Origin: an uncultured delta proteobacterium
GTDB lineage: Bacteria; Myxococcota_A; Polyangia; Polyangiales; Polyangiaceae
NCBI GenBank assembly: GCA_963841435.1
Contig: CAWJCS010000005.1
Location: 256,001 to 320,000 of the forward strand
DNA length: 64,000 nt
Direction of reading: 5' to 3'
Under the pieces are notes generated by a model, which made no database searches, was not told the DNA's origin, and saw only the letters and a list, made by a program, of their open reading frames with translations. Each line of letters begins with the position of its first letter. Positions within the stretch are counted from its first letter, which is position 1. This document shows, in pieces, positions 6,390-61,229 of the stretch. Made by a program: the position numbers and the translations under genes.

Positions 6390-8142
6390 CTATTTCGCGC
6401 CGGGCGACGGCTTCGCGCCGGGCGACGGCTTCGCGCCGGGCGACGGCTTCGCCTCGGGCGGCGGGTAGCTCGGCGGCTTGGGGTTGTCCGCCTCGTGCCG
6501 CTTCACGTCGATCTCGCCGAGCACGAGCGACGGCGTGATGATGGACGCGCCGCTCGTCTGATCGACGTTGAACACCGCGGGGTCCTTGCCCGCGCCGAGG
6601 ACGTCCTTGAGCGCGCGAAGCTCGAGCCCGTCGAGCGTGAGGCCGCGCACGGGCTCTTCCTTCTTGCCGGTGACGAGGTAGGCCTCCGCCGCGACGACGC
6701 CCTGTTCGACCGACACGGCCTCGTCGGCCGACATGCCGAACATGCCGCGCATCGCGAACACATGGCGCGGCGAGAGGCGTCTCACGACGTAGACTTTCGT
6801 CGCGGAGCCGTGCTTCTTCGCCTCGCGTTGGGCGAGATCGAGCAGCCGGTCACGCGAGAGCGGGCGGCGCGCCTGGACGACGAGCGTGGCGATGCCGGCA
6901 CCGCGCCCCATGCGAAAATGCGCGTTCGACTGGCGGATTTCCTTGCGCGGCGCGCGCGACATCAAGAGCGTCTTCAAGACGCCTTTCTCGATGAGCGAGA
7001 CGCGCCGCGCCGGCACGCCCTCGTCGTCGGCCGCGTAGTGACCCCAGAGTGCCTCGCCGCCCGGTCCCGCGGCGAGCGTGGCGTCGTCGAAAACGTCGAG
7101 CAGCGGCGAGACGACCTCGACGCCGAGGCGCGACGCGAGGCTGCGGTCGGTGTCCGCCGCCACGTAGCGCATGGGCGGCGTGCCCGAGAGGCGCTGCGCG
7201 AGGAGCGAGCGAACGAGCTGCGTCGCGGCGCGGCCTTCGAACAGCACGACGGCGCTACCGCTCTCGGCGAGCGGCGCCGTGCGGAACGTTTCCAGCCGCG
7301 CGACGGCGCGCCGTACCTCGGCCTCCATCGCTTCGAGCGACGGCAGCTTGCCCGCATCGTCGCTCGTGAAGTCGACGCCCTCACGCAGCTGCATGCCGTC
7401 GTCGGCTTGTGCCATGGCGCTCGCGCTGACGCGAACGCGCCGGTGCGTCTCGTCGGCCCAGGTGCCTTCGCTCGTGAGCAGGCGCCGCCTGAGCGTGATG
7501 CTCTGCGCGCCGGCACCCGAATCGACGAGCCCATGCCCCTCGGCGGCGGCGCTCGAAAGCCGTTCGACGACGCTCCGGAGCCGCGCGGCGTCGGCCGCCG
7601 AGTCGCGCGGCTTGTCGGGCACGACGGTTTCGTGGCGCGGCTCGGCCGCAAAATCCGGGTACGGGTCGCTGCGCTCGTTGACGCGCGCCGAGAGCGCGTT
7701 CTTTTTCTGGGCGAGCGACTCGAGCCCGTCCTTGTACTCGCTGTCGCTCTCGAGCCAGAGCTCGCGCCGCAAGGCGGCGTAGTCGTCTTCGAGCGGCGAG
7801 CCGCCGAACCCGACGCCGCGGCGACCGTACCAGACGCTCGAGCTATCGAGATCCGGCGTGCCGACGCGCAACGAGAACGTCGAGCGAGCGCGTGGGCATC
7901 GCGGACTCGAACGTGACGGCGCCGTGCGTCGCCATCGCCACGAAGAGCTCGCTGTCAACGGCCGTGTACGCGGCGAAATGAGTGTGCGGCTCGCCGGGCA
8001 GCGAAAGCTCGGTCGTCGTGCGCGCGAGCTCGTCGGCGAGAGCCCGGCGCAAAACGGCGTCGCCCGCCGGCGTCTGGGCGGCGGCGAGGCCCGGCGCGCA
8101 AACGAGCGCGAAGAGCGCACCGGCGAGCAGCGCGCGCCTCAC
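6390..8142 (-). CDS. TldE/PmbA-like protein with signal peptide, split by a +1 frameshift near 7876
   Basis: ORFs 7843-8142 and 6390-8120 join as RSLDV-SLRVGTPDLDS if one T is removed; D-D-EGVPA...LIEKGVLK...SNAH motifs; no HExxxH; GTG overlaps the tldD-like stop. Confidence 0.8.
6394..6447 (-). repeat. 3 x 18-bp coding tandem repeat (AKPSPG)
   Basis: ttcgcgccgggcgacggc x3, exact. Confidence 0.9.
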
Positions 8143-9950
8143 GGGGCACCTCCCGGTGCGGCGGGCGGCGGCGGCAAGATGGGCGGCTTGTCGTTCGCTT
8201 TGTCGCGCAGGGCGACCTCGATCTGCTGGACGAGCAGGCTCGGGCTCACGGCGGAAACCGGCACCCAGCCCGACTCGGCGCCGCAGCTACCGTTGAACAC
8301 GGCGTAGTGATCGTCGGCAGCGAGCACCTTGGTGAGCGAGACGAGCGGCGTGCCCACGATGTCGACGCCGCGAATGAGCTCGTCGGGGCGCCCATCCGTG
8401 AAGATCCGGTACACCATGACGGGCAAGAGCTTGTAGCCCTGCGTCGATTGGCGCGCCGTCTGCGTGTAGCCGCCCTCGATCTCCGCGAACAAGAGACCGT
8501 ACGGTTTGTGCTGGCGCTTCGCCTCGGCGACGAGCAGCCGGCGGAGCTCGGCGGCGGGCACCATGCGGCTCGGCTGCACGACGAGGTTCGCCTGGCGCGC
8601 CGTGGCAGCGCCGCTCAGCCGCCGGCCGTGCCCGTTGGAGCGCACGATGCCGCGCACGGGCACGCGGCTCATCAAGAAACCCTTGAGCACGCCGTCCTCG
8701 ACGAGCGACGCGCGCTGCGCGGGCACGCCCTCGTCGTCGAAGCGATAGAAACCGCTGAGCTCGGTGGGGCCGAGCGACCGGAGCCGCGGATCGTCGTACA
8801 CGCTCAAGAAAGGCGGCATGACGCGCTCGCCGAGCTTCTTCGCGAAGGTCTGCCCCTCGTCCTCGAGCTTCTGCCGCTCGCCCTCGATGCGATGACCGAA
8901 CGTCTCGTGGAAGAAGACGCCGGCGGCGCGACCACTGAGGATGGCTGGGCCCACGAAGGGCTCGGCGAGCTTGGCGCCACTGAGCGCCGCGAGGTCTCCC
9001 GCGATGCTGTCGGCCGCCGCGCCGAGCTTTTCGTCGTTCGGCAGGCCCGCTGGCGTCGAAGCCAGGAAATCCTCGCGCCGCGAGAGCTGCATGCCGTCGT
9101 CGGCGCGCGTGCTCGCACTGACGCTGAGCCGGTAGATGCGCTCACCGGTCTGGATCCGCGTTCCTTCGGAGGTCAGGATCCAGCGCGTGCCCGCGAAGGC
9201 CTCGATGCTCGCGTTGCCGCCGTGGATGCCCGGACGCTCGCGCAGCCGCGCGGAAATGGCGCGCAGGCGCCCTTGCCACTCTGCCTCACCGATCTCGAGC
9301 GGCAGCGCGGGCGGGCCGATGTGTCGGACCGGCGTCTCGCGCGAAAAGTCACCCGAGTGGTCCTCAATGTCAACCTTGACGCTGCCCTTCGACCGCACGG
9401 CGAGGAAGCGCTCGCTGGCGTTGCGATACACCTCGTCGATCTCCTGCCAGGCGAGGTGCCGGAGCGCGTCGTCGGATTCGGGACGATCAGCGGGCAGCAT
9501 GGCGGTCGAGCCGCCGCCGGTCTCGCCGTCGATTGGATGCGTCGAGTCGAGCTCGTACTTGCCGACGCGCACGTCGGTCATGAGAACGCGCATCTTGACG
9601 TGGTTTTTTCCCGTGACGGCGCCGTTCGCCGTCGCGACCCGCACGATGTCGTAGTCGGTGACCTCCTGGCCGATGAAGTAGGGAGCGAGGTCGCCGCGCC
9701 CGCCGAGCAACGTCATGGCGCGCTCGATCTCCGCGCCCATGACGTCCATACCGTGCGGAACGGGATGCTCGGGCTCCTCTCCCGGCTCGAGGCTCGAGAA
9801 CGAAGGTGCGGGCGCCCGGGCCACGGCCGCGCCTGCGGGCGCCCTGGGCGCAGCCGCGCCTTCCCCGCCGCAGCGGCACAGGGAGAGGCCGAGGGCAGCG
9901 ACCACCGCCGGCCGCGAAGCGAGAAGACGCCCCATGCGTGCTCCCGCCAT
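8139..9950 (-). CDS. tldD: TldD-family metalloprotease with N-terminal signal/lipoprotein peptide
   Basis: FFHETFGHRIE (HExxGH), FDDEGVPA, SNGHGR, CGAESGWVPVS; start uncertain. Confidence 0.88.
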   Translation of the reverse strand: MAGARMGRLLASRPAVVAALGLSLCRCGGEGAAAPRAPAGAAVARAPAPSFSSLEPGEEPEHPVPHGMDVMGAEIERAMTLLGGRGDLAPYFIGQEVTDYDIVRVATANGAVTGKNHVKMRVLMTDVRVGKYELDSTHPIDGETGGGSTAMLPADRPESDDALRHLAWQEIDEVYRNASERFLAVRSKGSVKVDIEDHSGDFSRETPVRHIGPPALPLEIGEAEWQGRLRAISARLRERPGIHGGNASIEAFAGTRWILTSEGTRIQTGERIYRLSVSASTRADDGMQLSRREDFLASTPAGLPNDEKLGAAADSIAGDLAALSGAKLAEPFVGPAILSGRAAGVFFHETFGHRIEGERQKLEDEGQTFAKKLGERVMPPFLSVYDDPRLRSLGPTELSGFYRFDDEGVPAQRASLVEDGVLKGFLMSRVPVRGIVRSNGHGRRLSGAATARQANLVVQPSRMVPAAELRRLLVAEAKRQHKPYGLLFAEIEGGYTQTARQSTQGYKLLPVMVYRIFTDGRPDELIRGVDIVGTPLVSLTKVLAADDHYAVFNGSCGAESGWVPVSAVSPSLLVQQIEVALRDKANDKPPILPPPPAAPGGAP

Positions 9951-10054
9951 GAGTAACACAATTGCGCCCGCCCCGGGGGGCCTCCTCGGGGGGCGGCCCC
10001 CCGCCGAAAAAAATCCGCCGCCCGTGTCGATCGGGGCTCGAGCCGGACGTCGCC

Positions 10055-10078
10055 TGGTCACGTGGTCACGTGGTCACG
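10055..10078. repeat. 3 x TGGTCACG direct repeat in a divergent intergenic region
   Basis: tggtcacg tggtcacg tggtcacg. Confidence 0.8.
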
Positions 10079-14176: not shown

Positions 14177-15523
14177 CTACTCGGGCCCCGAGTAGAGGTC
14201 CTTCGCCAGCGTGTCGAAGCCGAAGGCGTAGCCGACGCCGCTGTTGAGCTTCCACTTGGACGTGCCGTCGGGGGACACCCGCTCCATCTGTCCCGCCGCC
14301 GACCAGTTCACGAACGTGTCGCCGTCGGCGAGTCGCGCGGGCTCGCCGAGCACGAACGTGTAGACCGGAGGGTCGGCCGTGTAGCGCCACACCTCGGTGG
14401 CGACGTTCGCCTCGAAGTCGAGCTCGTACTCGAGCACGCGAGATTCGTCGCCGGAGCTACCGTCGTTGTCGAACACCAGGATGTGATTTTGGCGGACCTC
14501 GAACTGGTGCTGGTGGAGAAAGTGCGCGGAGCCGGGAGCGAAATCGAACGTGCCGCCGAAGGTGCCGAGCACCCACTCGCAGGCACCCGAGGCGCGGTCG
14601 ATCTTCACGATGCTGCTGAAATTGCGCATCCCGAGGTAGTACGCCTCCTCTTCGGGGTCGTAGTCGAGCGCGTTCGCGAAGGTCCAGCCGAGCTCGATGT
14701 CGTCACCCGGGGTCGTCGCCGGATCGAAGCAGTCCCAGGCGCTCCACACCGTGCTGATCTCGCCCTCGGGGTCAACCTCGACAATCTCGTCGCCGCGCAG
14801 CGTCTTGCCGTCGAAGTCGCGATACTCGACCACCATCGCGCCCAGCGTGCCGTCCGGGTGCTCGACGAAGTCGTGCGCGAGAAGCGGCAGCGGCACCGAC
14901 AACGTCTGCGTGCCGTCGAGCGACACGCGCACGAGCTCCGACGCCTCCGACGGTGTGCCCGAGATGCTGGCGGCGTTGTAGAGGATGCTCTTTCGGTCGA
15001 CGGAGAGCCGGGCCCGGTAAAAATCGAGATCGCGATCGTCCTCGTGGTACCAGACGATCTTGCCGTCGGCGTCGATCACGAGCACGGCCGTCGTCGCGCC
15101 GAGCACGGGCACGAGAACGAAGCCGTCGTGCCCCTCGCCCGTGAGCGAGAGCGGTGGCATCCCGAGTGGCAGATCGCCCGTGCGGATGCTCAGCGTGCCG
15201 CTTGCCGAGCCGCCCTCGCCCGTGGTGACGACGCGATAATAGTAGGTCGTGTCGGCTTCGAGGCCGAGCAAGTCCTGCTCGTGGGCGGTGCTCGCCGCGC
15301 CTTCGAGAGGTGTTCTCGACCCCAGGCTCTCGGTCGGGCCGTACTCGACGTAGGCCGTGGCGGGCTCGCTCGTCCTGAAGCTCACCTTGACGACCGTCGA
15401 GATGGCGTCGCTCAGGCGCGCCGAAATGTTCTCGGGCGCGCCGCCGTCCGACCCGCCGCACGAAACGATGCAACAGACGGCGACGCTCGCAACGAGCCAC
15501 GTTGCGGCACGTCCGGCGCTCAG
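14177..15523 (-). CDS. Aryl-sulfate sulfotransferase-like lipoprotein with FN3-like N-domain
   Basis: GLEADTTYYYRV (FN3); HDF, ANALDYD, MRN, HQHQF..LVFDN; probable CTG start at 15523. Confidence 0.78.
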   Translation of the reverse strand: MSAGRAATWLVASVAVCCIVSCGGSDGGAPENISARLSDAISTVVKVSFRTSEPATAYVEYGPTESLGSRTPLEGAASTAHEQDLLGLEADTTYYYRVVTTGEGGSASGTLSIRTGDLPLGMPPLSLTGEGHDGFVLVPVLGATTAVLVIDADGKIVWYHEDDRDLDFYRARLSVDRKSILYNAASISGTPSEASELVRVSLDGTQTLSVPLPLLAHDFVEHPDGTLGAMVVEYRDFDGKTLRGDEIVEVDPEGEISTVWSAWDCFDPATTPGDDIELGWTFANALDYDPEEEAYYLGMRNFSSIVKIDRASGACEWVLGTFGGTFDFAPGSAHFLHQHQFEVRQNHILVFDNDGSSGDESRVLEYELDFEANVATEVWRYTADPPVYTFVLGEPARLADGDTFVNWSAAGQMERVSPDGTSKWKLNSGVGYAFGFDTLAKDLYSGPE

Positions 15524-16593
15524 AATCCCTCCGCGCTCGGCTCGAGCACCGTCAAGAGAACGGGCGACGGGTTCTGGCACGTGCCGCAGAGCAGCGCGAA
15601 CAGCCAAACGCCCGCGTCGTCACGAGCGAACCCGGAGAACGCCTCGCCCGTGGTGCGCTCCGTCGCGAGCGCCAAATCCGTCGTCCGCCCACCCTCGAGC
15701 GGGATCTCGTAGAGCTCGGTGGCCGTCGTCTCGAGATCGAAGATCCCCGCCTCGAGATCCTCCACGCTGCGCCCCGCGTAGAACGCGACGAGCGCTCGGT
15801 CAACGGCAGCGTACGGAACGGGATTGCCGAGCCCGTTCCGGCCAAGCTCGTGCCAGTCGAGCGGCCATGGCCCTTTCTCCGGCACGACCAGCGGCTCCGC
15901 GCTCGCAAGATCCGCCGAAAAGTCGAGGATGCCGCAACCCGGCTCGGCGTCAACGCGCGTGTTGTCGGAATCTGCGGTCGGCTCGATGAAGATCATCGAG
16001 CGCGCGCCCATGCCGGGCACCGTGCCCGTCGTGAAGATCAAGAGGTAGCTGCGGTCGTTGCTTTCGACGTACTGCTCTTCGAGATCGATCATCGTGTCGA
16101 AGAACGAAAATGACGAGAGCTTCGTGCAGGTGTCACCCTCGCTCGTCGGGTACTGGACGTAGCCGTCGATCGCCGATTGCTCGAGCGTGTCGGTCGCGAG
16201 CTTCGACTCGACCTCGGCCTCGTCGAGGTGTATGATCCTGAGAAGTCCGACGTTGTCAACGTCGCCACTCGGGGACAGCTCGTGGCACTGGATGTCAGTC
16301 TCGACATCCGCCCAGCAGATGTCCAGATCCGTCGCCGGCGCCGTGCGCACGACGGGGATCGAGAGGCTGCTCGTCGCCTGGTAGTTGTTGGCGTCACCGA
16401 TGCTGATGGGTGCGGGCTCGGCCTGTTCGGGGCCCCCGTTCTTGGCGTCTTCACCGCAAGCCGCCGCGAGGAGCGCCGCCAGGGCGACGGGCGCGCACGC
16501 GCGAGAAAACCGGCCACTTTGCCGTGCGCGCGAGGCGTCCGAGTGGGGGGCCTGAGCAGGCAGGTGCGGTGTTTCTGGCTGGGGCGCTTGCAC
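15520..16593 (-). CDS. Hypothetical lipoprotein
   Basis: LAAAC lipobox; CGTCQNPSP near the C-terminus; operonic spacing. Confidence 0.75.
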   Translation of the reverse strand: MQAPQPETPHLPAQAPHSDASRARQSGRFSRACAPVALAALLAAACGEDAKNGGPEQAEPAPISIGDANNYQATSSLSIPVVRTAPATDLDICWADVETDIQCHELSPSGDVDNVGLLRIIHLDEAEVESKLATDTLEQSAIDGYVQYPTSEGDTCTKLSSFSFFDTMIDLEEQYVESNDRSYLLIFTTGTVPGMGARSMIFIEPTADSDNTRVDAEPGCGILDFSADLASAEPLVVPEKGPWPLDWHELGRNGLGNPVPYAAVDRALVAFYAGRSVEDLEAGIFDLETTATELYEIPLEGGRTTDLALATERTTGEAFSGFARDDAGVWLFALLCGTCQNPSPVLLTVLEPSAEGF

Positions 16594-16602
16594 GAGCCTC
16601 GC

Positions 16603-17352
16603 TCAGTAGTTGCAGAAGCCGTTGCGGCGCTCGAACTTGAGCGTCTCGGCGTCCGGGTCGTAGGTCGCGTTGCCGAAGGGGCCCCACGTCGAAAGGTCGT
16701 CGTCGTACTTCATGAGCACGCTGACGTGCCCGGCGTACTCGTTGACGAAGCCGTACGCGGCCTCCGAGCCGTCGAGCGCGGCGATGGCGTCGGCACCGAG
16801 CATGAGCTCGCTGTTTTCGCACACGCCGTTCTCGTCGAGCGTCACGCTCGGATTCGAAAGCACCACCCGGTGCGACCACAGACAATCCGGGCAACCATCC
16901 GGCGGGTCCCCCGCGCGCTCAACGTCGAAGTGGACGATGCAGATGTCGGCACCCAGGCCATCCTCGCCGATCAGAAAATACTCCTCGAACCCCGAAAACT
17001 CGTCCGCGTTGACGCTGGCCTCCCCCCGGTGCCCGCACACGCCGACCTGGGTGAAGCCGCTTCCCGACGAGCCGCCGCTCGCCGCCGTGCCGCTCGTGCC
17101 TCCGGCGCCGGTCCCCGCAGCGCCGCCGCTCGCCGACGCTCCCGCCGCTCCGGACAATCCACCGCTCGCCGAGGCTCCTGCCGCTCCTGCCAATCCGCCG
17201 CTCGCCGACGAGCCTCCGCCGGAAGTGCCGGCTGCCGCAGCGCTGCGCGCATCGTCGTCGCCGGAGCCACAGCCGGCCGCGACCGGCAGACCGCCGGCGA
17301 GCGTGGCGAGGACGACGAACCGGCTCGTGGCCGAACGCGTCGCTTCGATCAT
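16603..17352 (-). CDS. Hypothetical Gly-linker lipoprotein with Cys motifs
   Basis: AAGC lipobox; CPDCLW; ATGA overlap with the upstream gene. Confidence 0.78.
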   Translation of the reverse strand: MIEATRSATSRFVVLATLAGGLPVAAGCGSGDDDARSAAAAGTSGGGSSASGGLAGAAGASASGGLSGAAGASASGGAAGTGAGGTSGTAASGGSSGSGFTQVGVCGHRGEASVNADEFSGFEEYFLIGEDGLGADICIVHFDVERAGDPPDGCPDCLWSHRVVLSNPSVTLDENGVCENSELMLGADAIAALDGSEAAYGFVNEYAGHVSVLMKYDDDLSTWGPFGNATYDPDAETLKFERRNGFCNY

Positions 17353-19127
17353 TCGGGCCCTCCGACGTTCAGCGCGTAAAGGTCGTCGATGAGCACCGTG
17401 TTGCCGACCATCTTGTTGTACGCGTCGTTCCCACCGTCGTAGTCGAACTTCACGTAAAAGACGGTCTGCTTGTCGGGCGTGATCTCACGAATCACGCCGC
17501 CCGTGCCGTAGTTGCCGAGCGTGTTCCCGTTTTCGAGGCGAAGTGCCATGCCCTTGGCGCGCGGCCATTCGGGGCCCTCGGTGTAGCGCCACTTCTCGAC
17601 GAGCCGCTGATTCTGCCGGTCGATCGTGAACTCCAGGAAGGCGTGCTGATTGGGCGTCGGCGTCGTATTGCCCGCGGTGTAGCCCGGCATGTGGCTCGAA
17701 ACCATCAACGTACCGTCCTTGCTGATGTTGGGATCGTGCTGGTAACCGAAGCTCCAGGCGTTCGGCGGCATGGTGAGCGGGGGTGCGAAGGTGTAGCTGC
17801 CCGGCGCTTCCCCGTACTGCCCGATCACGGTGCCGTCTTGGCGGCTCACCTGGATCACGGTGTTCTCGTCGGGGTACGACATGATCACGCTGTCGTCCGC
17901 TTCGTTCCAGTTGATGGTGTTCGTGTAGCAGACGAAGTTGCGACCGAAGTGATCGGCGCAGCTCCACACGGTGCGAAACACGCCCGCGCGGCTCATCTCG
18001 CGCAGCTCGTCGTTGGCGTCGTAGAGCAGCGCGCCGTCCGTGGTCACGTCGATGGCGTCGGCGAGGTTCGGCACCTCGATCTCCTCCTCGTAGGCGTGAT
18101 CGAGCGTCATCTTGAGCACGGACTCGGTGAAGTTGCCGCAGCCGAAGCAGCGCTTTTCGATCCAGATGTAGCCGCCGTCGCGCGCGATGCGCTGGAACGA
18201 CGAGGTCGCGAGTGTCGAAGGGTCGGCGTAGTACCAGACGACGCGGCCCTTGCGATCCATGATGTAGAGCCAGAACGTGTTGCGGTAGTAGTTGTTCGGC
18301 CCGCCGCCCTCGGAGTCCTCGACCGAGCCGAACATCCAGCGATCGGGGCTCGCGCGCACGGGGTCGTAGTCCATGACCGTGGCCACGGGCATGCTGCTCG
18401 GCACCGGATCGGTCGTGCCCTCGTAGTCGTGCGTCGCGCAATCGGTCGAGCCCTGGCGGCTCACGACCCGCACGGTGACGGGCGTCGCGCCGGGCACGCC
18501 GAGCACGACGTCGCTGTGGGCGCCGGCCACGCCGGGCTTCGGGCGCGAGGTCATGACGTTGCCGGGCTCGAACGTGAACTCGAGCCACGTCTCGTCCGCG
18601 GCGACCGTCTGCGTCCAGTCGACGACGAGGACGGTGTTCACGTCGTCGTGAACGCGGATGCTCACGCCGCTCACGAACGCGTCACCGCAACCTGCTCCGC
18701 CGACGCCGCTGCCGCTGCCCGCTGTGTCGCTCGCTCCGGCCGTGCCCGCGGCGCCGGCTGGCGTCGCCGTGCCGTCGCCCGCGGTGCCGCCGCCGCCCGT
18801 GCCGGCGTTGCCCCCGCCTCCGCTCGCCGAGCTCCCGCCTGCGGTCCCCGACCCTCCTGCTGCCGTACCCCCCGAGGTTCCTGCGTCGCCGGCGCTACCC
18901 GCACCGCTTTCGGAGGTGCCTCCTTGGCCCGCGGCGCCGCCCGCCGTCAGGGCGCCGCCGGCGCCGCCCGCGCCAGCGCCTGCACCCGGCGCACCGCTCG
19001 TCCCGGCGCCCGCGCCGCCGCCCGCATCGGACGACGTGCAGCCGGCGGCCGACGCCAACAGAGCGAGCCCGCCCGCGGTCCCGGCGACAAGCGCCGAGAC
19101 CCGACGCCTCATTCGCATGCGCCTCAT
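17349..19127 (-). CDS. Divergent aryl-sulfate sulfotransferase-like beta-propeller lipoprotein
   Basis: AAGC lipobox; Gly linker; YIMDRKGRVVWYY, YTNTINW, FGYQHDPN, RLENGNTLGNYG. Confidence 0.72.
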   Translation of the reverse strand: MRRMRMRRRVSALVAGTAGGLALLASAAGCTSSDAGGGAGAGTSGAPGAGAGAGGAGGALTAGGAAGQGGTSESGAGSAGDAGTSGGTAAGGSGTAGGSSASGGGGNAGTGGGGTAGDGTATPAGAAGTAGASDTAGSGSGVGGAGCGDAFVSGVSIRVHDDVNTVLVVDWTQTVAADETWLEFTFEPGNVMTSRPKPGVAGAHSDVVLGVPGATPVTVRVVSRQGSTDCATHDYEGTTDPVPSSMPVATVMDYDPVRASPDRWMFGSVEDSEGGGPNNYYRNTFWLYIMDRKGRVVWYYADPSTLATSSFQRIARDGGYIWIEKRCFGCGNFTESVLKMTLDHAYEEEIEVPNLADAIDVTTDGALLYDANDELREMSRAGVFRTVWSCADHFGRNFVCYTNTINWNEADDSVIMSYPDENTVIQVSRQDGTVIGQYGEAPGSYTFAPPLTMPPNAWSFGYQHDPNISKDGTLMVSSHMPGYTAGNTTPTPNQHAFLEFTIDRQNQRLVEKWRYTEGPEWPRAKGMALRLENGNTLGNYGTGGVIREITPDKQTVFYVKFDYDGGNDAYNKMVGNTVLIDDLYALNVGGPE

Positions 19128-55416: not shown

Positions 55417-57009
55417 ATGAAATCGTATCGCTTCGCTCGACGCTCGTTCCTCGCCGGCATCGGTGGCGCCGTCGGTCTCGAGATCCTGCTCAGGAACATG
55501 GAGGCCGCAGCGATGGGCGCCGGCGCGCCGCCGCGCTTCTTGATGATGCACTGGCCCGTCGGCACGATCAGGAACCAGTTCATCCCCACGGGCACCGGCA
55601 CTTCCTACAGCACGTCGAAGACGGCTCAGGGTCCCGGCTACATCATCTCGCCGTTCGATACGCCGGAGCTTCGCCCGTACACAATCGCGATGCACGGCTT
55701 CAACATGAACGGCATCAGCGGCCAGGGGGGCGGCCACGAAGACGGCACGCCGTTCGCCACGACGGGCTCGAGCTCGCCCGGGACGCGCGCCAACGGCGGC
55801 GAGGCCGACGACGGCTGCGCCGGCGGGCCGTCGTGGGATCAGATCATGCTGAAGAACGTGCCCGAGCTCTCCCGCAAGGACGGCATGGGTACGATCATCG
55901 GCAAGGGGTATTACAACACGATCTGCGACAAGCGCATCGACTCCTACGAGACGTCGACGCGCTGCCTTTCGTACAGCTACGAGAAGCAGTCGATCAACTC
56001 GGCACGTCCCGGCGGCTCGATCACCGAGAACAAGCCACTCCCGCCCGAGCTCAGCCCGCTCCGCGCCTTCAACGACCTCTTCAGCGGCTTCATGCCCGGC
56101 GGCACGATGAGCGATCCGCAGGCGCTCAAGATCCTGAAGCTCCGAAAGAGCGTGCTCGACTACTCGCTGCGCGAGCTCGACCGGCTCAAGACGCTCGGCC
56201 CGGCAAGCGAGCGGGACAAGATCGATAGCCACGCGGCGGCCGTTCGCAAGCTCGAAGCCCAGCTCACCGATCAGATCAGCAACGGCGGCACCGGCACGAC
56301 CGGGGAATGCACCCTGCCCCCGATGCCGGATTCTTCCCTCACCGGCAAGACGGGCGACACGCTCGGCGGGGACTACAACAATCCGGTCGCCAACCAGTCC
56401 GACGAGACGACCCACGAAGCCGTGGGCAAGGCCCATGCAGCCATCATCCGCGCCGCATTCGCCTGCGACCTCATCCGCGTGGCGACCTTCCAGTGGTCAC
56501 CCGGGACCAATCACGTCTCGTTCAAGGGGCTCGACCCGAACAGCCCGAACACGATCTACATGCACCACCCGCTCAGCCACCGCGTGGGCGACGCGAACTT
56601 CTACAACGGCGCGCGCCCCTCGACGAACGCGTACATCTGGGACGCCATGGTGAATGCCAACCGCTGGTACTTCCAGAAGACGGCCGACATCCTCAACGAG
56701 TTCAGGCTGCAGATCGATCCGCTCGATCCGATGGGCGGTAGCCTGCTCGACACCACGGTGATCCCCATGATCACGGAAGTGGCCGAGGCCGCTCACACTC
56801 GAAACGGGCATGGCGCGTTCATTTTCGGCGGCACCAAGCTCGGCATGCAGGGCGGCCAGTACAAGAGCGTCTCCGGCATCCACAATCAGTTCTGGGTGAC
56901 GGTGGCCCAGGCGTTCCTCGGCTCGAACGCCGTGAGCGCGCTGTCGGGCGAGAGCTACGTGAAGAACGGGGCGAACCCCATCGCGGGGATCTGGTCCGCT
57001 CCGGCCTGA
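55417..57009 (+). CDS. DUF1552 domain protein (Tat signal)
   Basis: RRSFL, SVLD, AFACDLIRVATFQW, HHPLSH; 1 nt after its partner gene. Confidence 0.88.
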   Translation: MKSYRFARRSFLAGIGGAVGLEILLRNMEAAAMGAGAPPRFLMMHWPVGTIRNQFIPTGTGTSYSTSKTAQGPGYIISPFDTPELRPYTIAMHGFNMNGISGQGGGHEDGTPFATTGSSSPGTRANGGEADDGCAGGPSWDQIMLKNVPELSRKDGMGTIIGKGYYNTICDKRIDSYETSTRCLSYSYEKQSINSARPGGSITENKPLPPELSPLRAFNDLFSGFMPGGTMSDPQALKILKLRKSVLDYSLRELDRLKTLGPASERDKIDSHAAAVRKLEAQLTDQISNGGTGTTGECTLPPMPDSSLTGKTGDTLGGDYNNPVANQSDETTHEAVGKAHAAIIRAAFACDLIRVATFQWSPGTNHVSFKGLDPNSPNTIYMHHPLSHRVGDANFYNGARPSTNAYIWDAMVNANRWYFQKTADILNEFRLQIDPLDPMGGSLLDTTVIPMITEVAEAAHTRNGHGAFIFGGTKLGMQGGQYKSVSGIHNQFWVTVAQAFLGSNAVSALSGESYVKNGANPIAGIWSAPA

Positions 57010-57081
57010 GACGTTTCCCCGCACGGACGAGCGCCGCATTTGCGCCTCACCGACGCGTGAGGGGCGTCGAGCACGACTCGA

Positions 57082-57101
57082 AAGCCGTTGAGTAACGGCT
57101 T
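57082..57101. promoter_or_regulatory. Perfect 8-bp inverted repeat (operator or hairpin)
   Basis: AAGCCGTT-GAGT-AACGGCTT. Confidence 0.4.
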
Positions 57102-57335
57102 CGAAAGAGGGGGCCCCCGGCGTCCCGAAGCCTGGAAACCGTGCGGCGGGCATGGGGTCGCGCGACGTCCGCGGAAGATTTCGGTGTGGGCACCGAGGGG
57201 CGGCCCGACGTAATTTGCGGCCACCGCCGACATATTCTCCGAAAACTCGTCGCCGCGGCTCCACGTTTCTGTTACTTGACGGCCGTTGCTAGGGAACCAA
57301 GAGGCTCCCCGGGGAAAAGCAGAGGGTTACGCACG

Positions 57336-58779
57336 ATGTCAAAGCAGACCATGCGCTTTCGAATTTTTAGCTGTGCCGTGCTTGCCGCGGGCAGCGCGAT
57401 GGCACAAGAGGCGCCGGCGGCCGGTGGCGGTGCCTCCCTATCGACGGGTGACGGCGCCAAGGCCAGCATGGAGACGAGCGGCGCGGCTCCCGCGGACGGG
57501 TCGGCATTCGAGCCCTACGAGGAGGGCTACCCGCCGGAAGGCAACGTGCTCGAGATCGGCATCTTCGGCGGCGTCCTCTTCCCGAGCCCGATCCACCAGC
57601 TGCGCAATCACGAGCTTTACCCCACTCACTACAAGTACAACTCCGGGCTCGAGGGCGGCGGGCGCCTCGGATACTACCCGCTGTCGTGGGTCGGCATCGA
57701 AGGCGAAGGCATGGGCGCAAGCTCCAAGGTCAAGGGCGTGGGCGACCTCGCCGTGCTCTTCGGGTACCGAGGCTTTCTGGTCGTGCAAGCACCGACACCG
57801 TACGTCGCCCCGTTCCTCGTCGGCGGCTACGGCAGGCTCGGCGCCGTGAGCCACGCCATGGGCGGCGACGTTGATCAGGGCTGGATGTTCGGCGCCGGCG
57901 CGAAGATCCCGATGACGCACATCCTCGGCCTGCGTGTCGATTTCCGCGACAACCTCACGCCGAACAAGCACCTCGGCAAGGGGCAGGGGCACAGCTTCGA
58001 GCTCCAGCTGGGCCTCTCCGCGACGATCGAGCGGTCGCGCAAGGAACCGCCGCCTCCGCCGCCGGATTCCGACCACGACGGCGTCGGCCGATCCGATGGA
58101 CAAGTGCCCGAACGACGCGGGCGTGGCGCCCGATGGCTGCCCGACGGACATGGACGCCGACGGCGTGCTCGACCGGGACGACTTCTGCCCGCGTGAAGCC
58201 GGGCCCGCTCCGAAGGGCTGCCCGATCATCGACCCGGATCCCGACAAGGACGGCGTGCCGCTGCCCTGCGATCAGTGCCCGGACGAGGCGGGGATCAAGC
58301 CCGACGGCTGCCCGGTGCGCGACAAGGACGGCGACGGCATTCCCGACGACCGCGACAAGTGCCCCGACGCTGCCGAAACCAAGAACGGCTTCGAGGACGA
58401 CGACGGCTGCCCCGACAAGATCCCCGAGGCGGTTCAGAAGTACTCGGGTGTCGTGCCGGGCATCTACTTCGAGAAGGGCAAGGCCGTGATTCGGCCCACC
58501 TCGAAGCGTGTGCTCGATGCCGCGGTCAAGGTTCTCGAGCAGTACCAGAGCATCTCCTTCGAGATTTCCGGGCACACGTCGAGCGAAGGCGACCCGACCG
58601 TCAACGACGAGCTGTCGCTCGCGCGCGCCGACGCCGTGAAGCAGTACTTCGTCGACAAGGGCATCGCCCCGAATCGCCTGAAGACGCGCGGCGCCGGCTC
58701 CTCGGAGCCCGTCGCCGACAACAAGACGCGTTCGGGCCGCGAGCAGAATCGCCGCATCGAGTTCAAGGTCCTGCAGTAG
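57336..58779 (+). CDS. OmpA-family protein (beta-barrel + TSP3-like repeats + OmpA C-domain), +1 frameshift near 58086
   Basis: DxDGDG..D.CP repeats; GHTS...N..LS.ARA.AV...NRRIEF; the two frames join as DHDGV-ADPMDKCP. Confidence 0.85.
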
Positions 58780-58869
58780 GCGCCCTCGGCGGCGCCGTGC
58801 CGGCGGCATCTCTGCCGGCGCGGCGCCCCGTGGCTCGACACGGGGCCCGAGAAGCCGCAGCATTCGGCC

Positions 58870-59880
58870 GTGGACGCCTCGGGACGAGCCGAGCACGACG
58901 AGCGTTCCGCGTCGGCGCGCGGCTTCGCCTGGACCGAAGCGCCCGAGCCGCACGCCGAGCGGCGCCGCGCCATGCTGCGCGACCATCCCGAAATTCGCGC
59001 CCTCTACGGCCCTTCGACGCGCACCAAGTACGTCTGCACCGCGCTCGTCGCCGTTCAGCTCGCCGTCGCATACCTCCTCCGCGACGCTTCGTGGGTGTGG
59101 GTCGTCATCGTGGCGTACGCCTTCGGAGGCGTCGTCAACCAGTCGCTCCTGCTCGCGATTCACGAGCTCAGCCACAACCTCGCCTTCCGGCGGCCTGCGT
59201 ACAACCGTCTGTTCGCGGTGTTCGTCAACCTGCCGATCGGCGTGCCCGTGGCGGAGACGTTCCGCTACTACCACCTCCTGCATCACCTCAATCAAGGCGA
59301 CGAGCGGCTCGATACCGATCTACCCACCGAGCTCGAAGGCCGGCTCACGCGCGGGCCCGTCGGCAAGCTCCTCTGGCTCAGCGTGCAGGGGCTCGCGTAC
59401 GCCCTTCGCCCGCTCATCGTCCACCCGAAGCGCCCGAGCCTCGCCGAGCTCGGCAACCTCGTCGTCGTTTTCGCCTTCGACTGGGCGGTGCTGCACTTCT
59501 GGGGCGTGAAATCGCTCGCGTACCTGCCGATCGGCTCGCTCGCCGTCATGGGTCTGCACCCGATCGCCGGCCACTACATTTCCGAGCACTACGTGTTTCG
59601 CCCGGGCCAGGAGACGTACTCGTACTACGGGCCCCTCAATCTCATCGCCTTCAACGTGGGCTACCACAACGAGCACCACGATTTTCCGTACGTTGCGGGC
59701 GCGCGGCTGCCGGAGCTCCGACGCATCGCGCCCGAGTTCTACCGCGACCTTTTGCACCACGGATCGTGGACGGCAACGCTCGTTCGCTACGTCACGCGCC
59801 CGAGCCTCGGTGGTTTTAGCCGCGTCAAACGCCGCACGCGCGGGGACGCGTCGTCGCGCACGACGCCCGCCACCCGCTGA
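58870..59880 (+). CDS. Sphingolipid delta-4 desaturase/C4-hydroxylase (DEGS/DES1-like)
   Basis: N-terminal W..EPHAERRRAML..HPEI..L; His boxes HELSH, HLLHH, HNEHH; HPIAGHYISEHY; ETYSYYG. Confidence 0.88.
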   Translation: MDASGRAEHDERSASARGFAWTEAPEPHAERRRAMLRDHPEIRALYGPSTRTKYVCTALVAVQLAVAYLLRDASWVWVVIVAYAFGGVVNQSLLLAIHELSHNLAFRRPAYNRLFAVFVNLPIGVPVAETFRYYHLLHHLNQGDERLDTDLPTELEGRLTRGPVGKLLWLSVQGLAYALRPLIVHPKRPSLAELGNLVVVFAFDWAVLHFWGVKSLAYLPIGSLAVMGLHPIAGHYISEHYVFRPGQETYSYYGPLNLIAFNVGYHNEHHDFPYVAGARLPELRRIAPEFYRDLLHHGSWTATLVRYVTRPSLGGFSRVKRRTRGDASSRTTPATR

Positions 59881-59897
59881 GGCCCGAGGCTCGCGCC

Positions 59898-60266
59898 ATG
59901 GTCCGGTCGAACCTCGCCGCGGCGCTCTTCGCGCTGGCGCTCGCCCACGCGTGCGGCGGCGAGTCGAGCCTCGTTCACTCGGGCGATGCCCGTGGGACGA
60001 ACGCCGAGGACGCCGGCGCCGCCGGCGAGGGTCCGGCGTGCGACCCGTCGAGCGAGCACCAGCGCCGCTACATCGGGCTCGGGGCCGAGTGCCCCGGCGT
60101 CGAGTTCCGCTGCTACGATCCGACGACCGTCTTCTGGAACGACTGCGGCTGCGGCTGCGAGGAAGACCCGAATTGCCCCGAAGTCTTCGACTGCTCGCCG
60201 CGCGCGAGCACGCCCTGCACGCCCGAAGAGCTCGCTCACTGTCCGTTCAGCCGGGTGCTCGAATGA
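59898..60266 (+). CDS. Small Cys-rich lipoprotein
   Basis: AHAC lipobox; F.C...F.NDCGCGC. Confidence 0.72.
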   Translation: MVRSNLAAALFALALAHACGGESSLVHSGDARGTNAEDAGAAGEGPACDPSSEHQRRYIGLGAECPGVEFRCYDPTTVFWNDCGCGCEEDPNCPEVFDCSPRASTPCTPEELAHCPFSRVLE

Positions 60267-60278
60267 GCGAGCACGCGG

Positions 60279-60791
60279 TTACTTCTCCATGAACCGACGC
60301 AGCGCTTCGAACCACACGAGCTTGTGCCGGAAGCCCGGAAAGCTCGCGTTGAGGCCGCTCGGGTTCGGCACGACGAAAACGCGCGCCCCCGCGATCGTCT
60401 CGGGCTTCTCGCCGGCGCCGCCGCTTCGCGGCAGGCGGAAGTACGTCTGGTAGAGGCTGAGGCCCACGAACGCCACGACGCGCGGCTCGAGACGCGCGAT
60501 CTTTCGCGCCAGCGTGCGCCTGCCGCGCGCAATCTCGTCGCTCGTGAGCTCGGCCGCCGAGCGCGTGGGCCGCGGGCAGAGGTTCGTGAGCGCTATGCCG
60601 GACTCGGCGAGCCTTGCGTCGTCTTCGTACGTGAGCCGCTTCGGAACGAGGCGCGCCTCGTCCAGGAGTCGCCAGAACGGGTTGCCGTTCCCCGCGAAGT
60701 GGTGCCCGAGAGCGGCCGAGCGCAGCCCCGGGTTGATGCCGACGAGCAAGAGCCGTGGGCGGGCGACGATCACGTCCTTGAGGCGCGGCAT
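60279..60791 (-). CDS. mug: Mismatch-specific uracil-DNA glycosylase
   Basis: GINPG, HFAGNGNPFW, PNPSGLNA. Confidence 0.92.
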   Translation of the reverse strand: MPRLKDVIVARPRLLLVGINPGLRSAALGHHFAGNGNPFWRLLDEARLVPKRLTYEDDARLAESGIALTNLCPRPTRSAAELTSDEIARGRRTLARKIARLEPRVVAFVGLSLYQTYFRLPRSGGAGEKPETIAGARVFVVPNPSGLNASFPGFRHKLVWFEALRRFMEK

Positions 60792-60815
60792 GGCGGACGA
60801 AGGCGCCTCGCGGGC

Positions 60816-61229
60816 TCAGCCGACGACGGACACGACGACGCGCCGCGTGGGGCGTGGCCCGTCGAACTCGCAGAAGAAGACGTTTTGCCACGTGCCGAGC
60901 CCAAGCTCCCCGGCCGCGACGGGGATGGTTTCGGACGGACCGACGAGCGCGCTCTTGATGTGCGCAGCGGCATTGTTGTCGATGCGATCGTGCAGCCAGC
61001 CGTCGTGCTCGACGACCATTTTGCCGAGGGCGCGCAAGAAGTCCTTTCCGATGTTCGGATCGTCGTTCTCGTTCACGGTGATCGCGGCCGTGGCGTGTGG
61101 TGTAAAGATCGATATTTGACCGTCGCGCACACCGGACTCGCGCAAAACACCGCGCACCTGGTCCGTGATGTCGACGATTGCCTGCTTGTCGCGCGTCGGG
61201 AACGTGAGGGTGCGAGCGAAGTAGGTCAT
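60816..61229 (-). CDS. yjbQ: YjbQ/UPF0047 family protein
   Basis: HATAAI..NEN.DP, NAAAHIK, LGTWQ...EFDGPR. Confidence 0.92.
   Translation of the reverse strand: MTYFARTLTFPTRDKQAIVDITDQVRGVLRESGVRDGQISIFTPHATAAITVNENDDPNIGKDFLRALGKMVVEHDGWLHDRIDNNAAAHIKSALVGPSETIPVAAGELGLGTWQNVFFCEFDGPRPTRRVVVSVVG

Follow-up and report, generated by a model that had tools for sequence, protein, structure and literature searches.

The window analysed here, a stretch of 64,000 nucleotides from the genome of an uncultured delta proteobacterium of the family Polyangiaceae, contains, as judged from its sequence, an intact gene of a soil-type myxobacterium whose product is a close relative of the animal ceramide-modifying enzyme. 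Sequence comparison and structure modelling together indicate that this product, referred to below as DES, belongs to the DEGS/DES family of membrane di-iron enzymes. We consider it probable that the target of DES is C4 of the sphingoid base in a ceramide supplied by an unlinked cluster of spt-, GNAT- and epimerase-like genes, and that the product is a 4,5-unsaturated and/or 4-hydroxy ceramide.

The ORF lies exactly where the original prediction had placed it. The gene, the predicted features of its protein and the two genes that adjoin it are as follows:

57934-58779, plus strand: OmpA-family protein with a thrombospondin type 3-like repeat and an Asp/Pro-rich linker, directly upstream of DES.
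58870..59880, plus strand: predicted DEGS/DES-family sphingolipid C4 desaturase/hydroxylase gene, an ORF of 336 aa with a GTG start (Pfam; identity; AF2).
58924..59016, plus strand: Lipid_DES N-terminal domain, residues 19-49 (PF08557, E 1.3e-13, 50.5 bits against a cut-off of 23).
59095..59748, plus strand: FA_desaturase catalytic domain, residues 76-293 (PF00487, E 7.5e-24, 85.3 bits; Foldseek matches).
59161..59175, plus strand: His box 1, HELSH (H98, H102), invariant in 23 of 23 aligned sequences.
59272..59286, plus strand: His box 2, HLLHH (H135, H138, H139), invariant in the 23-sequence alignment.
59665..59679, plus strand: His box 3, HNEHH (H266, H269, H270), invariant in the 23-sequence alignment.
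59898-60266, plus strand: 122-aa Cys-rich ORF with a lipoprotein-like N-terminus, beginning 17 bp downstream of the stop codon of DES (GC3 0.90).

Both strings that had been quoted from the translation, HPIAGHYISEHY and ETYSYYGPLNLIAFNVGYHNEHHDFP, are found in it, and so is the N-terminal DEGS motif, which had been written one residue short between the W and the PH (the true sequence is FAWTEAPEPHAERRRAMLRDHPEIRAL, a trivial correction). The three His boxes, also reported from the outset, fit the HX3H, HX2HH, HX2HH pattern, and the family alignment in which they are invariant includes members down to 37% identity with DES. Hydrophobic segments are located at about residues 52-98 and 190-216. 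The profile search that had been proposed as a check did match Lipid_DES, and this is the single match to that profile in the whole genome: of the eight FA_desaturase matches that the genome contains, only DES carries the Lipid_DES domain as well. This, together with an identity of 47-52% to DES1/DES2, bears out the claim that the protein is of the DEGS type and not an ordinary fatty-acid desaturase. An assignment to the ordinary bacterial desaturases was tried and rejected, the NCBIfam DesB and CrtW models reaching just 16-22 bits.

The identity to animal proteins extends over most of the sequence. In BLASTP comparisons, a protein of the nematode Gnathostoma with the UniRef name sphingolipid 4-desaturase is 47% identical to DES over 313 aa (E 9e-113, 2 gap positions) and DES2 of Mustela is 52% identical over 289 aa (E 3e-94, 2 gap positions); the latter, named 'sphingolipid delta(4)-desaturase/C4-monooxygenase', gives the top pairwise identity found. 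Nematode and mollusc DES1-type proteins are 47-50% identical to DES, and outside its own clade the top representatives are named animal DES1 and DES2 proteins. Such likeness is far beyond chance. A search of the PDB by sequence returned nothing relevant to DES and no DEGS structure. The AF2 model built from the 23-sequence alignment has a mean pLDDT of 90.3 and a pTM of 0.87, and its top Foldseek matches in the PDB are the desaturase-like chains 8xks_K and 8xqw_M (TMq 0.60-0.62), which are parts of two chloroplast motor complexes. AlkB follows with TMq 0.51 (8sbb) and 0.44 (8f6t) at E values of 5e-4 to 2e-3, and the match to the stearoyl-CoA desaturase SCD1 (4zyo, 4ymk) is weaker, with TMq 0.32-0.34.

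The GC3 of the DES ORF is 0.88, within the range of the neighbouring genes (0.83-0.91), and the gene is located on a 1.85-Mb contig of a 7.78-Mb genome that is 95% complete; DES is therefore a resident bacterial gene and no contaminant. Further neighbours in the window are genes for a UDG-family glycosylase and CorA. When the OmpA-family protein, the 122-aa ORF, the UDG, CorA and a DUF1552 protein were compared by tblastn with the best 80 bacterial DES loci, three OmpA matches were obtained and none for the others; the 122-aa ORF, which has no Pfam match, thus adjoins DES in none of these 80 loci. The window neighbours of DES give no clue to lipid function. A scan of positions 57000-60900 returned no promoter-like sites and two terminator-like sites, against 2.7 expected. 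Elsewhere in the window, two adjacent large PmbA/TldD-like proteins are encoded at 6390-10061 (minus strand) and two arylsulfotransferase (ASST)-like proteins, separated by two ORFs without annotation, at 14177-19127 (minus strand).

A candidate ceramide pathway is encoded elsewhere in the genome. The search for serine palmitoyltransferase (SPT) that had been suggested started from 14 class I/II aminotransferase matches, 11 of which were scanned against NCBIfam, the three weakest (25.8-28.2 bits) being left out. SPT models are the best matches of a 514-aa alpha-oxoamine synthase encoded on a contig other than that of DES (G000:C3:1062729-1064273; L016:10730-12274), with 448.7 bits for NF047600 and 383.1 bits for NF047599 compared to 345 for bioF. 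By its best-scoring models the protein is a candidate SPT, but both scores lie under the equivalog cut-offs, which are 640 and 500, respectively. Downstream of this spt-like gene and on the same strand are ORFs of 454, 375 and 326 aa. The 454-aa product (G000:C3:1064445-1065809; L016:12446-13810), encoded between the spt-like and the GNAT-like genes, is proline-rich, contains a long proline run and has no Pfam or NCBIfam match. The 375-aa GNAT-like product likewise matches nothing in Pfam or NCBIfam, and in the Atlas its nearest clusters (score 0.98-0.99) consist of Myxococcota and Pseudomonadota proteins of the N-acetyltransferase family, about 375-384 aa long. The 326-aa product is an NAD-dependent epimerase-family protein (PF01370). 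The available part of one report on Caulobacter describes a ceramide pathway made up of Spt, the N-acyltransferase CerS and the dehydrogenase CerR (PMC11324152), and CerR is called NDUFA9-like in the part available of another (PMC11087976). Because the enzyme types match this set (types, not sequences, were compared), we read the spt-like, GNAT-like and epimerase-like genes as candidates for Spt, bCerS and CerR.

No TLC-type ceramide synthase (PF03798) was found in the genome, and the ceramide would accordingly come from the bacterial route; this negative result says little, however, the same profile having matched none of the control genomes either. With a candidate ceramide pathway in the genome, the original prediction that the organism may make sphingosine- or phytosphingosine-type ceramides is a reasonable one. 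The single full-length methyltransferase of the CMAS family in the genome (242 bits) is encoded at G000:C4:665386-666207 (L112) and could be either a synthase of cyclopropane fatty acids or a C-methyltransferase that acts on lipids.

DES (contig C5) and the spt-like gene (contig C3) are unlinked in the window genome, and the connection between them is seen in other bacteria. The three cluster proteins were compared by tblastn with the best 80 bacterial DES loci, each including as much as 6 kb of flanking sequence. In 12 of these 80 loci, one or more of the spt, GNAT and CerR homologues lie within 6 kb of DES; the 12 belong to Ekhidna, Marinoscillum, Cyclobacteriaceae, a MAG labelled Rickettsiales and Bacteriovorax UBA1852. 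All three adjoin DES in six of the 80 (Ekhidna and Cyclobacteriaceae, both Bacteroidota), and in the Bacteriovorax locus (L111) spt is the only one of the triad beside DES. The linkage supports the view that the triad is a conserved module and that bacterial DES-family genes belong with it. Of the 14 loci in the myxobacterial clade, three of them shorter than 6 kb, none has a triad homologue nearby; the link of this clade to ceramide is thus one of homology and not of its own gene context. Among the loci compared, two DES copies with identical scores are located about 80 kb apart on one Cyclobacteriaceae contig (L065 and L066). The DES of a locus labelled Rickettsiales bacterium NP5 (L062), where spt and GNAT adjoin it, falls within a tight Marinoscillum/Cyclobacteriaceae group, and that of a locus labelled uncultured Alphaproteobacteria (L047) groups with metagenomic representatives adjoining a choanoflagellate sequence; the bin labels or contigs of these two loci may be misassigned.

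It is because of its family membership and the linkage of the triad to DES in other bacteria that we assign DES a role at C4. According to the mechanism that we propose, the spt-, GNAT- and epimerase-like genes of the other contig would supply (dihydro)ceramide to DES, an integral-membrane protein, and the di-iron centre held by its His boxes would carry out an O2-dependent oxidation at C4 of the N-acyl-sphinganine base. The outcome would be a 4,5 double bond (sphingosine-type), a 4-hydroxyl (phytosphingosine-type), or both, and the resulting ceramide would probably be destined for the outer membrane. Since named DES1- and DES2-type proteins are about equally similar to DES, the choice between desaturation and hydroxylation is not decided by sequence. 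It is possible, though we do not think it likely, that DES is a pure or predominant C4-hydroxylase akin to the monooxygenase activity of DES2, producing phytoceramide-type lipids with no 4,5 double bond. The top identity being to a mammalian DES2 speaks for this, as do the JGI name 'sphingolipid 4-desaturase/C4-monooxygenase' carried by some close homologues and the case of Bacteriovorax, in which phytosphingosine-type bases have been reported and a DES family member is encoded beside spt. On the other hand, the identity to the nematode and mollusc DES1-type proteins is similar, and hydroxylations could be supplied instead by other enzymes, as there are seven FA_hydroxylase (PF04116) matches in the genome.

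The original prediction spoke of a eukaryote-type desaturase in a bacterium, but such a gene is not unusual there: bacteria commonly carry DEGS-type genes, which have been annotated as such before, and the window gene is one more member of a widespread family. Of 8,000 candidates scored in a word-indexed search, at least 5,033 are homologues of DES. The top 120 share 66-82% identity with it; many of them are named 'sphingolipid delta-4 desaturase' by JGI, and the NCBI names, where given, are Polyangiaceae. An exhaustive search of 50%-identity representatives returned 2,686 proteins at E <= 1e-3 and 453 at E <= 1e-30. With one genome per bacterial species, there are at least 589 DES loci (of 598 pattern-matched stretches), and the phyla represented among the matches listed include Myxococcota, Bacteroidota, Ignavibacteriota, Acidobacteriota and Bdellovibrionota. 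The near end of the best 80 loci consists of Polyangiaceae- and Sorangium-labelled MAGs at 61-75% identity and of Cystobacter fuscus Cbf 10 at 72%, and at the far end are Bacteroidota, Ignavibacteriota, Balneolota, Acidobacteriota, Bacteriovorax and others at 37-48%.

Within the phylum the gene is patchily distributed. In a sample of 401 genomes, with 18 first-look candidates scored per genome, Lipid_DES is present in 18, the window's own genome included, and the GNAT gene in 168. The GNAT gene occurs in 13 of the 18 DES-positive and 155 of the 383 DES-negative genomes, although the genomes are related and these counts are not independent. In the family to which the window genome belongs, Lipid_DES is present in 4 of the 29 other genomes sampled, compared to 28 of 29 for the GNAT gene. 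A whole-protein search of one family member (G140, 97% complete) gave no DES match, and a member of the same genus (G195) has a DES copy that is just 48% identical to that of the window; the copy of another member (G280) is 63% identical. In G295 DES is split between adjoining frames that cover query residues 17-140 and 141-323 (G295:C101:15279-16198; L118, L120), the result of either a frameshift in a pseudogene or an assembly error, and all that G265 contains is a fragment of 39% identity. As an accessory gene, DES has thus been gained and lost over a candidate ceramide pathway that is near-universal in its own family.

According to another reading, DES acts not on ceramide but on a different lipid with a similar head, for example a sulfonolipid or some other N-acyl amino-alcohol lipid, or else its target is an acyl chain. 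In favor of this are the absence of linkage between DES and spt in the window genome and in the myxobacterial clade, and the fact that five of the 18 DES-positive genomes have no GNAT gene, none being found even at E 1e-3. The best SPT-model matches of these five genomes score 560, 540, 419, 278 and 276 bits, so that three of them do have SPT-like matches of 419-560 bits. The 276-bit domain (G354:C11:239292-240428) is part of a 2,225-aa open frame that may be a PKS-type sphingoid-base synthase. The Lipid_DES domain, the identity of about 50% to ceramide-specific enzymes, the linkage of the triad to DES in other bacteria and the near-universal GNAT gene of the family all argue against a substrate other than ceramide, and we hold it to be very unlikely. 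That DES is an inactive or decaying accessory gene is hardly credible, for in spite of the split copy in G295, the fragment in G265 and a distribution that is patchy even within genera, the window ORF is intact and keeps every family-invariant residue, its GC3 is typical of the genome and its AF2 model is confident.

The phylogeny of the family was analysed using a FastTree of 204 rows and an IQ-TREE (LG+C20+F+G4 PMSF) of 46 named rows. Of 30 representative clusters that were looked up, 12 name a eukaryote, one of them (P0139, a mite) via a cluster member only. The smaller tree includes 11 of these 12, namely two nematodes (P0122 and P0124), a mollusc, a mammal, a mite, a choanoflagellate, a chytrid, a yeast, a euglenozoan, a green alga and Chromera; the twelfth and the unnamed representatives of the larger tree were left out. 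Both trees place the window DES in a clade of Polyangiaceae-type sequences and C. fuscus (support 100/100), and in both a large Bacteroidota/Ignavibacteriota/Balneolota clade (100/100) has the fungal and euglenozoan sequences as its sister group (98/94). The backbone branches of either tree are short, with weak support. The DES of C. fuscus, which by its NCBI lineage belongs to another myxobacterial family, nests among the Polyangiaceae sequences (97/92), and this suggests a transfer within the phylum.

An exchange of lipid genes between myxobacteria and eukaryotes had been envisaged, and the trees do not support it in that form. Bacteria and eukaryotes are mixed in the family: holding the 11 eukaryotes together, a group that was named after the first tree had been seen, is rejected by the AU test (delta lnL 19.9, p = 0.009), so that one or more interdomain transfers, over and above a single split, are likely. 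Where the myxobacterial clade itself belongs is not decided by the test: neither placing it with Holozoa (delta lnL 7.1, p = 0.20) nor joining it to bacterial group A (delta lnL 2.7, p = 0.14) is rejected. The naming of a donor or a direction of transfer for this clade was considered and set aside as unsupported. One may imagine that the Polyangiaceae-type and Cystobacter DES share a specific origin with the holozoan DEGS through one interdomain transfer, in either direction, and that sphingosine-type ceramides are made here by a eukaryote-like enzyme fed by a non-eukaryotic pathway. The top identities outside the clade are to animal proteins and the tree constrained to the holozoan union is worse by the 7.1 lnL given above, which is what such an origin has in its favor; we regard it as unlikely. 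In a 2026 Nature paper, the sphingolipid metabolism of eukaryotes is discussed as possibly of Asgard affinity, with limited contributions from Myxococcota; the main text of that paper mentions desaturases nowhere (PMC12872458).

The synthesis of ceramide in bacteria by Spt, bCerS and CerR has been worked out only recently, and the window DES and its many bacterial relatives are the obvious candidates for the modification of sphingoid-base C4 in bacteria. Sorangium cellulosum So ce56 reportedly has C9-methyl sphingosine-type bases. Our literature search, with subscription journals mostly outside it, returned neither a report of desaturation or hydroxylation at sphingoid-base C4 by a bacterial enzyme nor a characterized bacterial DEGS-type enzyme, and no match for C9-methyl bases in Sorangium. 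The 72%-identical copy in C. fuscus Cbf 10 could make the question testable there, if the strain is available and tractable. The interleaving of bacterial and eukaryotic DEGS sequences in the trees means that the family bears on a sphingolipid chemistry shared by the two domains, of which the window gene settles neither donor nor direction.

Among enzymes of known structure, AlkB (8sbb, 8f6t) and SCD1 (4zyo, 4ymk) belong to the same structural superfamily as DES; they differ from it in sequence (13-17% identity), substrates and regiochemistry. Far closer are the eukaryotic DES1/DEGS1 and DES2/DEGS2, a family reportedly described by Ternes et al. in 2002, with which DES shares both Pfam domains (PF08557 and PF00487), the three His boxes and a collinear identity of 47-52% over nearly the full length. 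Eukaryotic DES enzymes receive electrons via cytochrome b5. The window DES differs from them in its bacterial host, in a substrate that would come from the candidate Spt/bCerS/CerR route, and also in its electron donor, which would have to be another one, as no Cyt-b5 domain (PF00173) was found in the 95%-complete genome with a profile that matched one of 14 control genomes. The DEGS-type genes of Bacteroidota, Ignavibacteriota, Acidobacteriota and Bdellovibrionota, known by annotation only, belong to the same family (37-48% identity); several of them adjoin spt, GNAT and CerR, whereas the clade of the window gene (100/100) is separate from them and unlinked to spt.

With Caulobacter crescentus, the window genome shares the types of enzymes, its SPT-like, GNAT-like and NAD-epimerase-like candidates being encoded in a cluster, the Caulobacter counterparts being Spt CC_1162, CerR CC_1164 and CerS CC_1154 in the part of the source available (PMC11324152). 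In contrast to the Caulobacter pathway, no ACP or acyl-ACP synthetase gene was seen beside the spt-like gene. The two organisms would also differ in where the lipid is oxidized: in Caulobacter, the DesA-family hydroxylase CC_0202 modifies the amide-linked acyl chain, as stated in the same part of that source (PMC11324152), whereas the window DES possesses the Lipid_DES domain of enzymes that modify the base.
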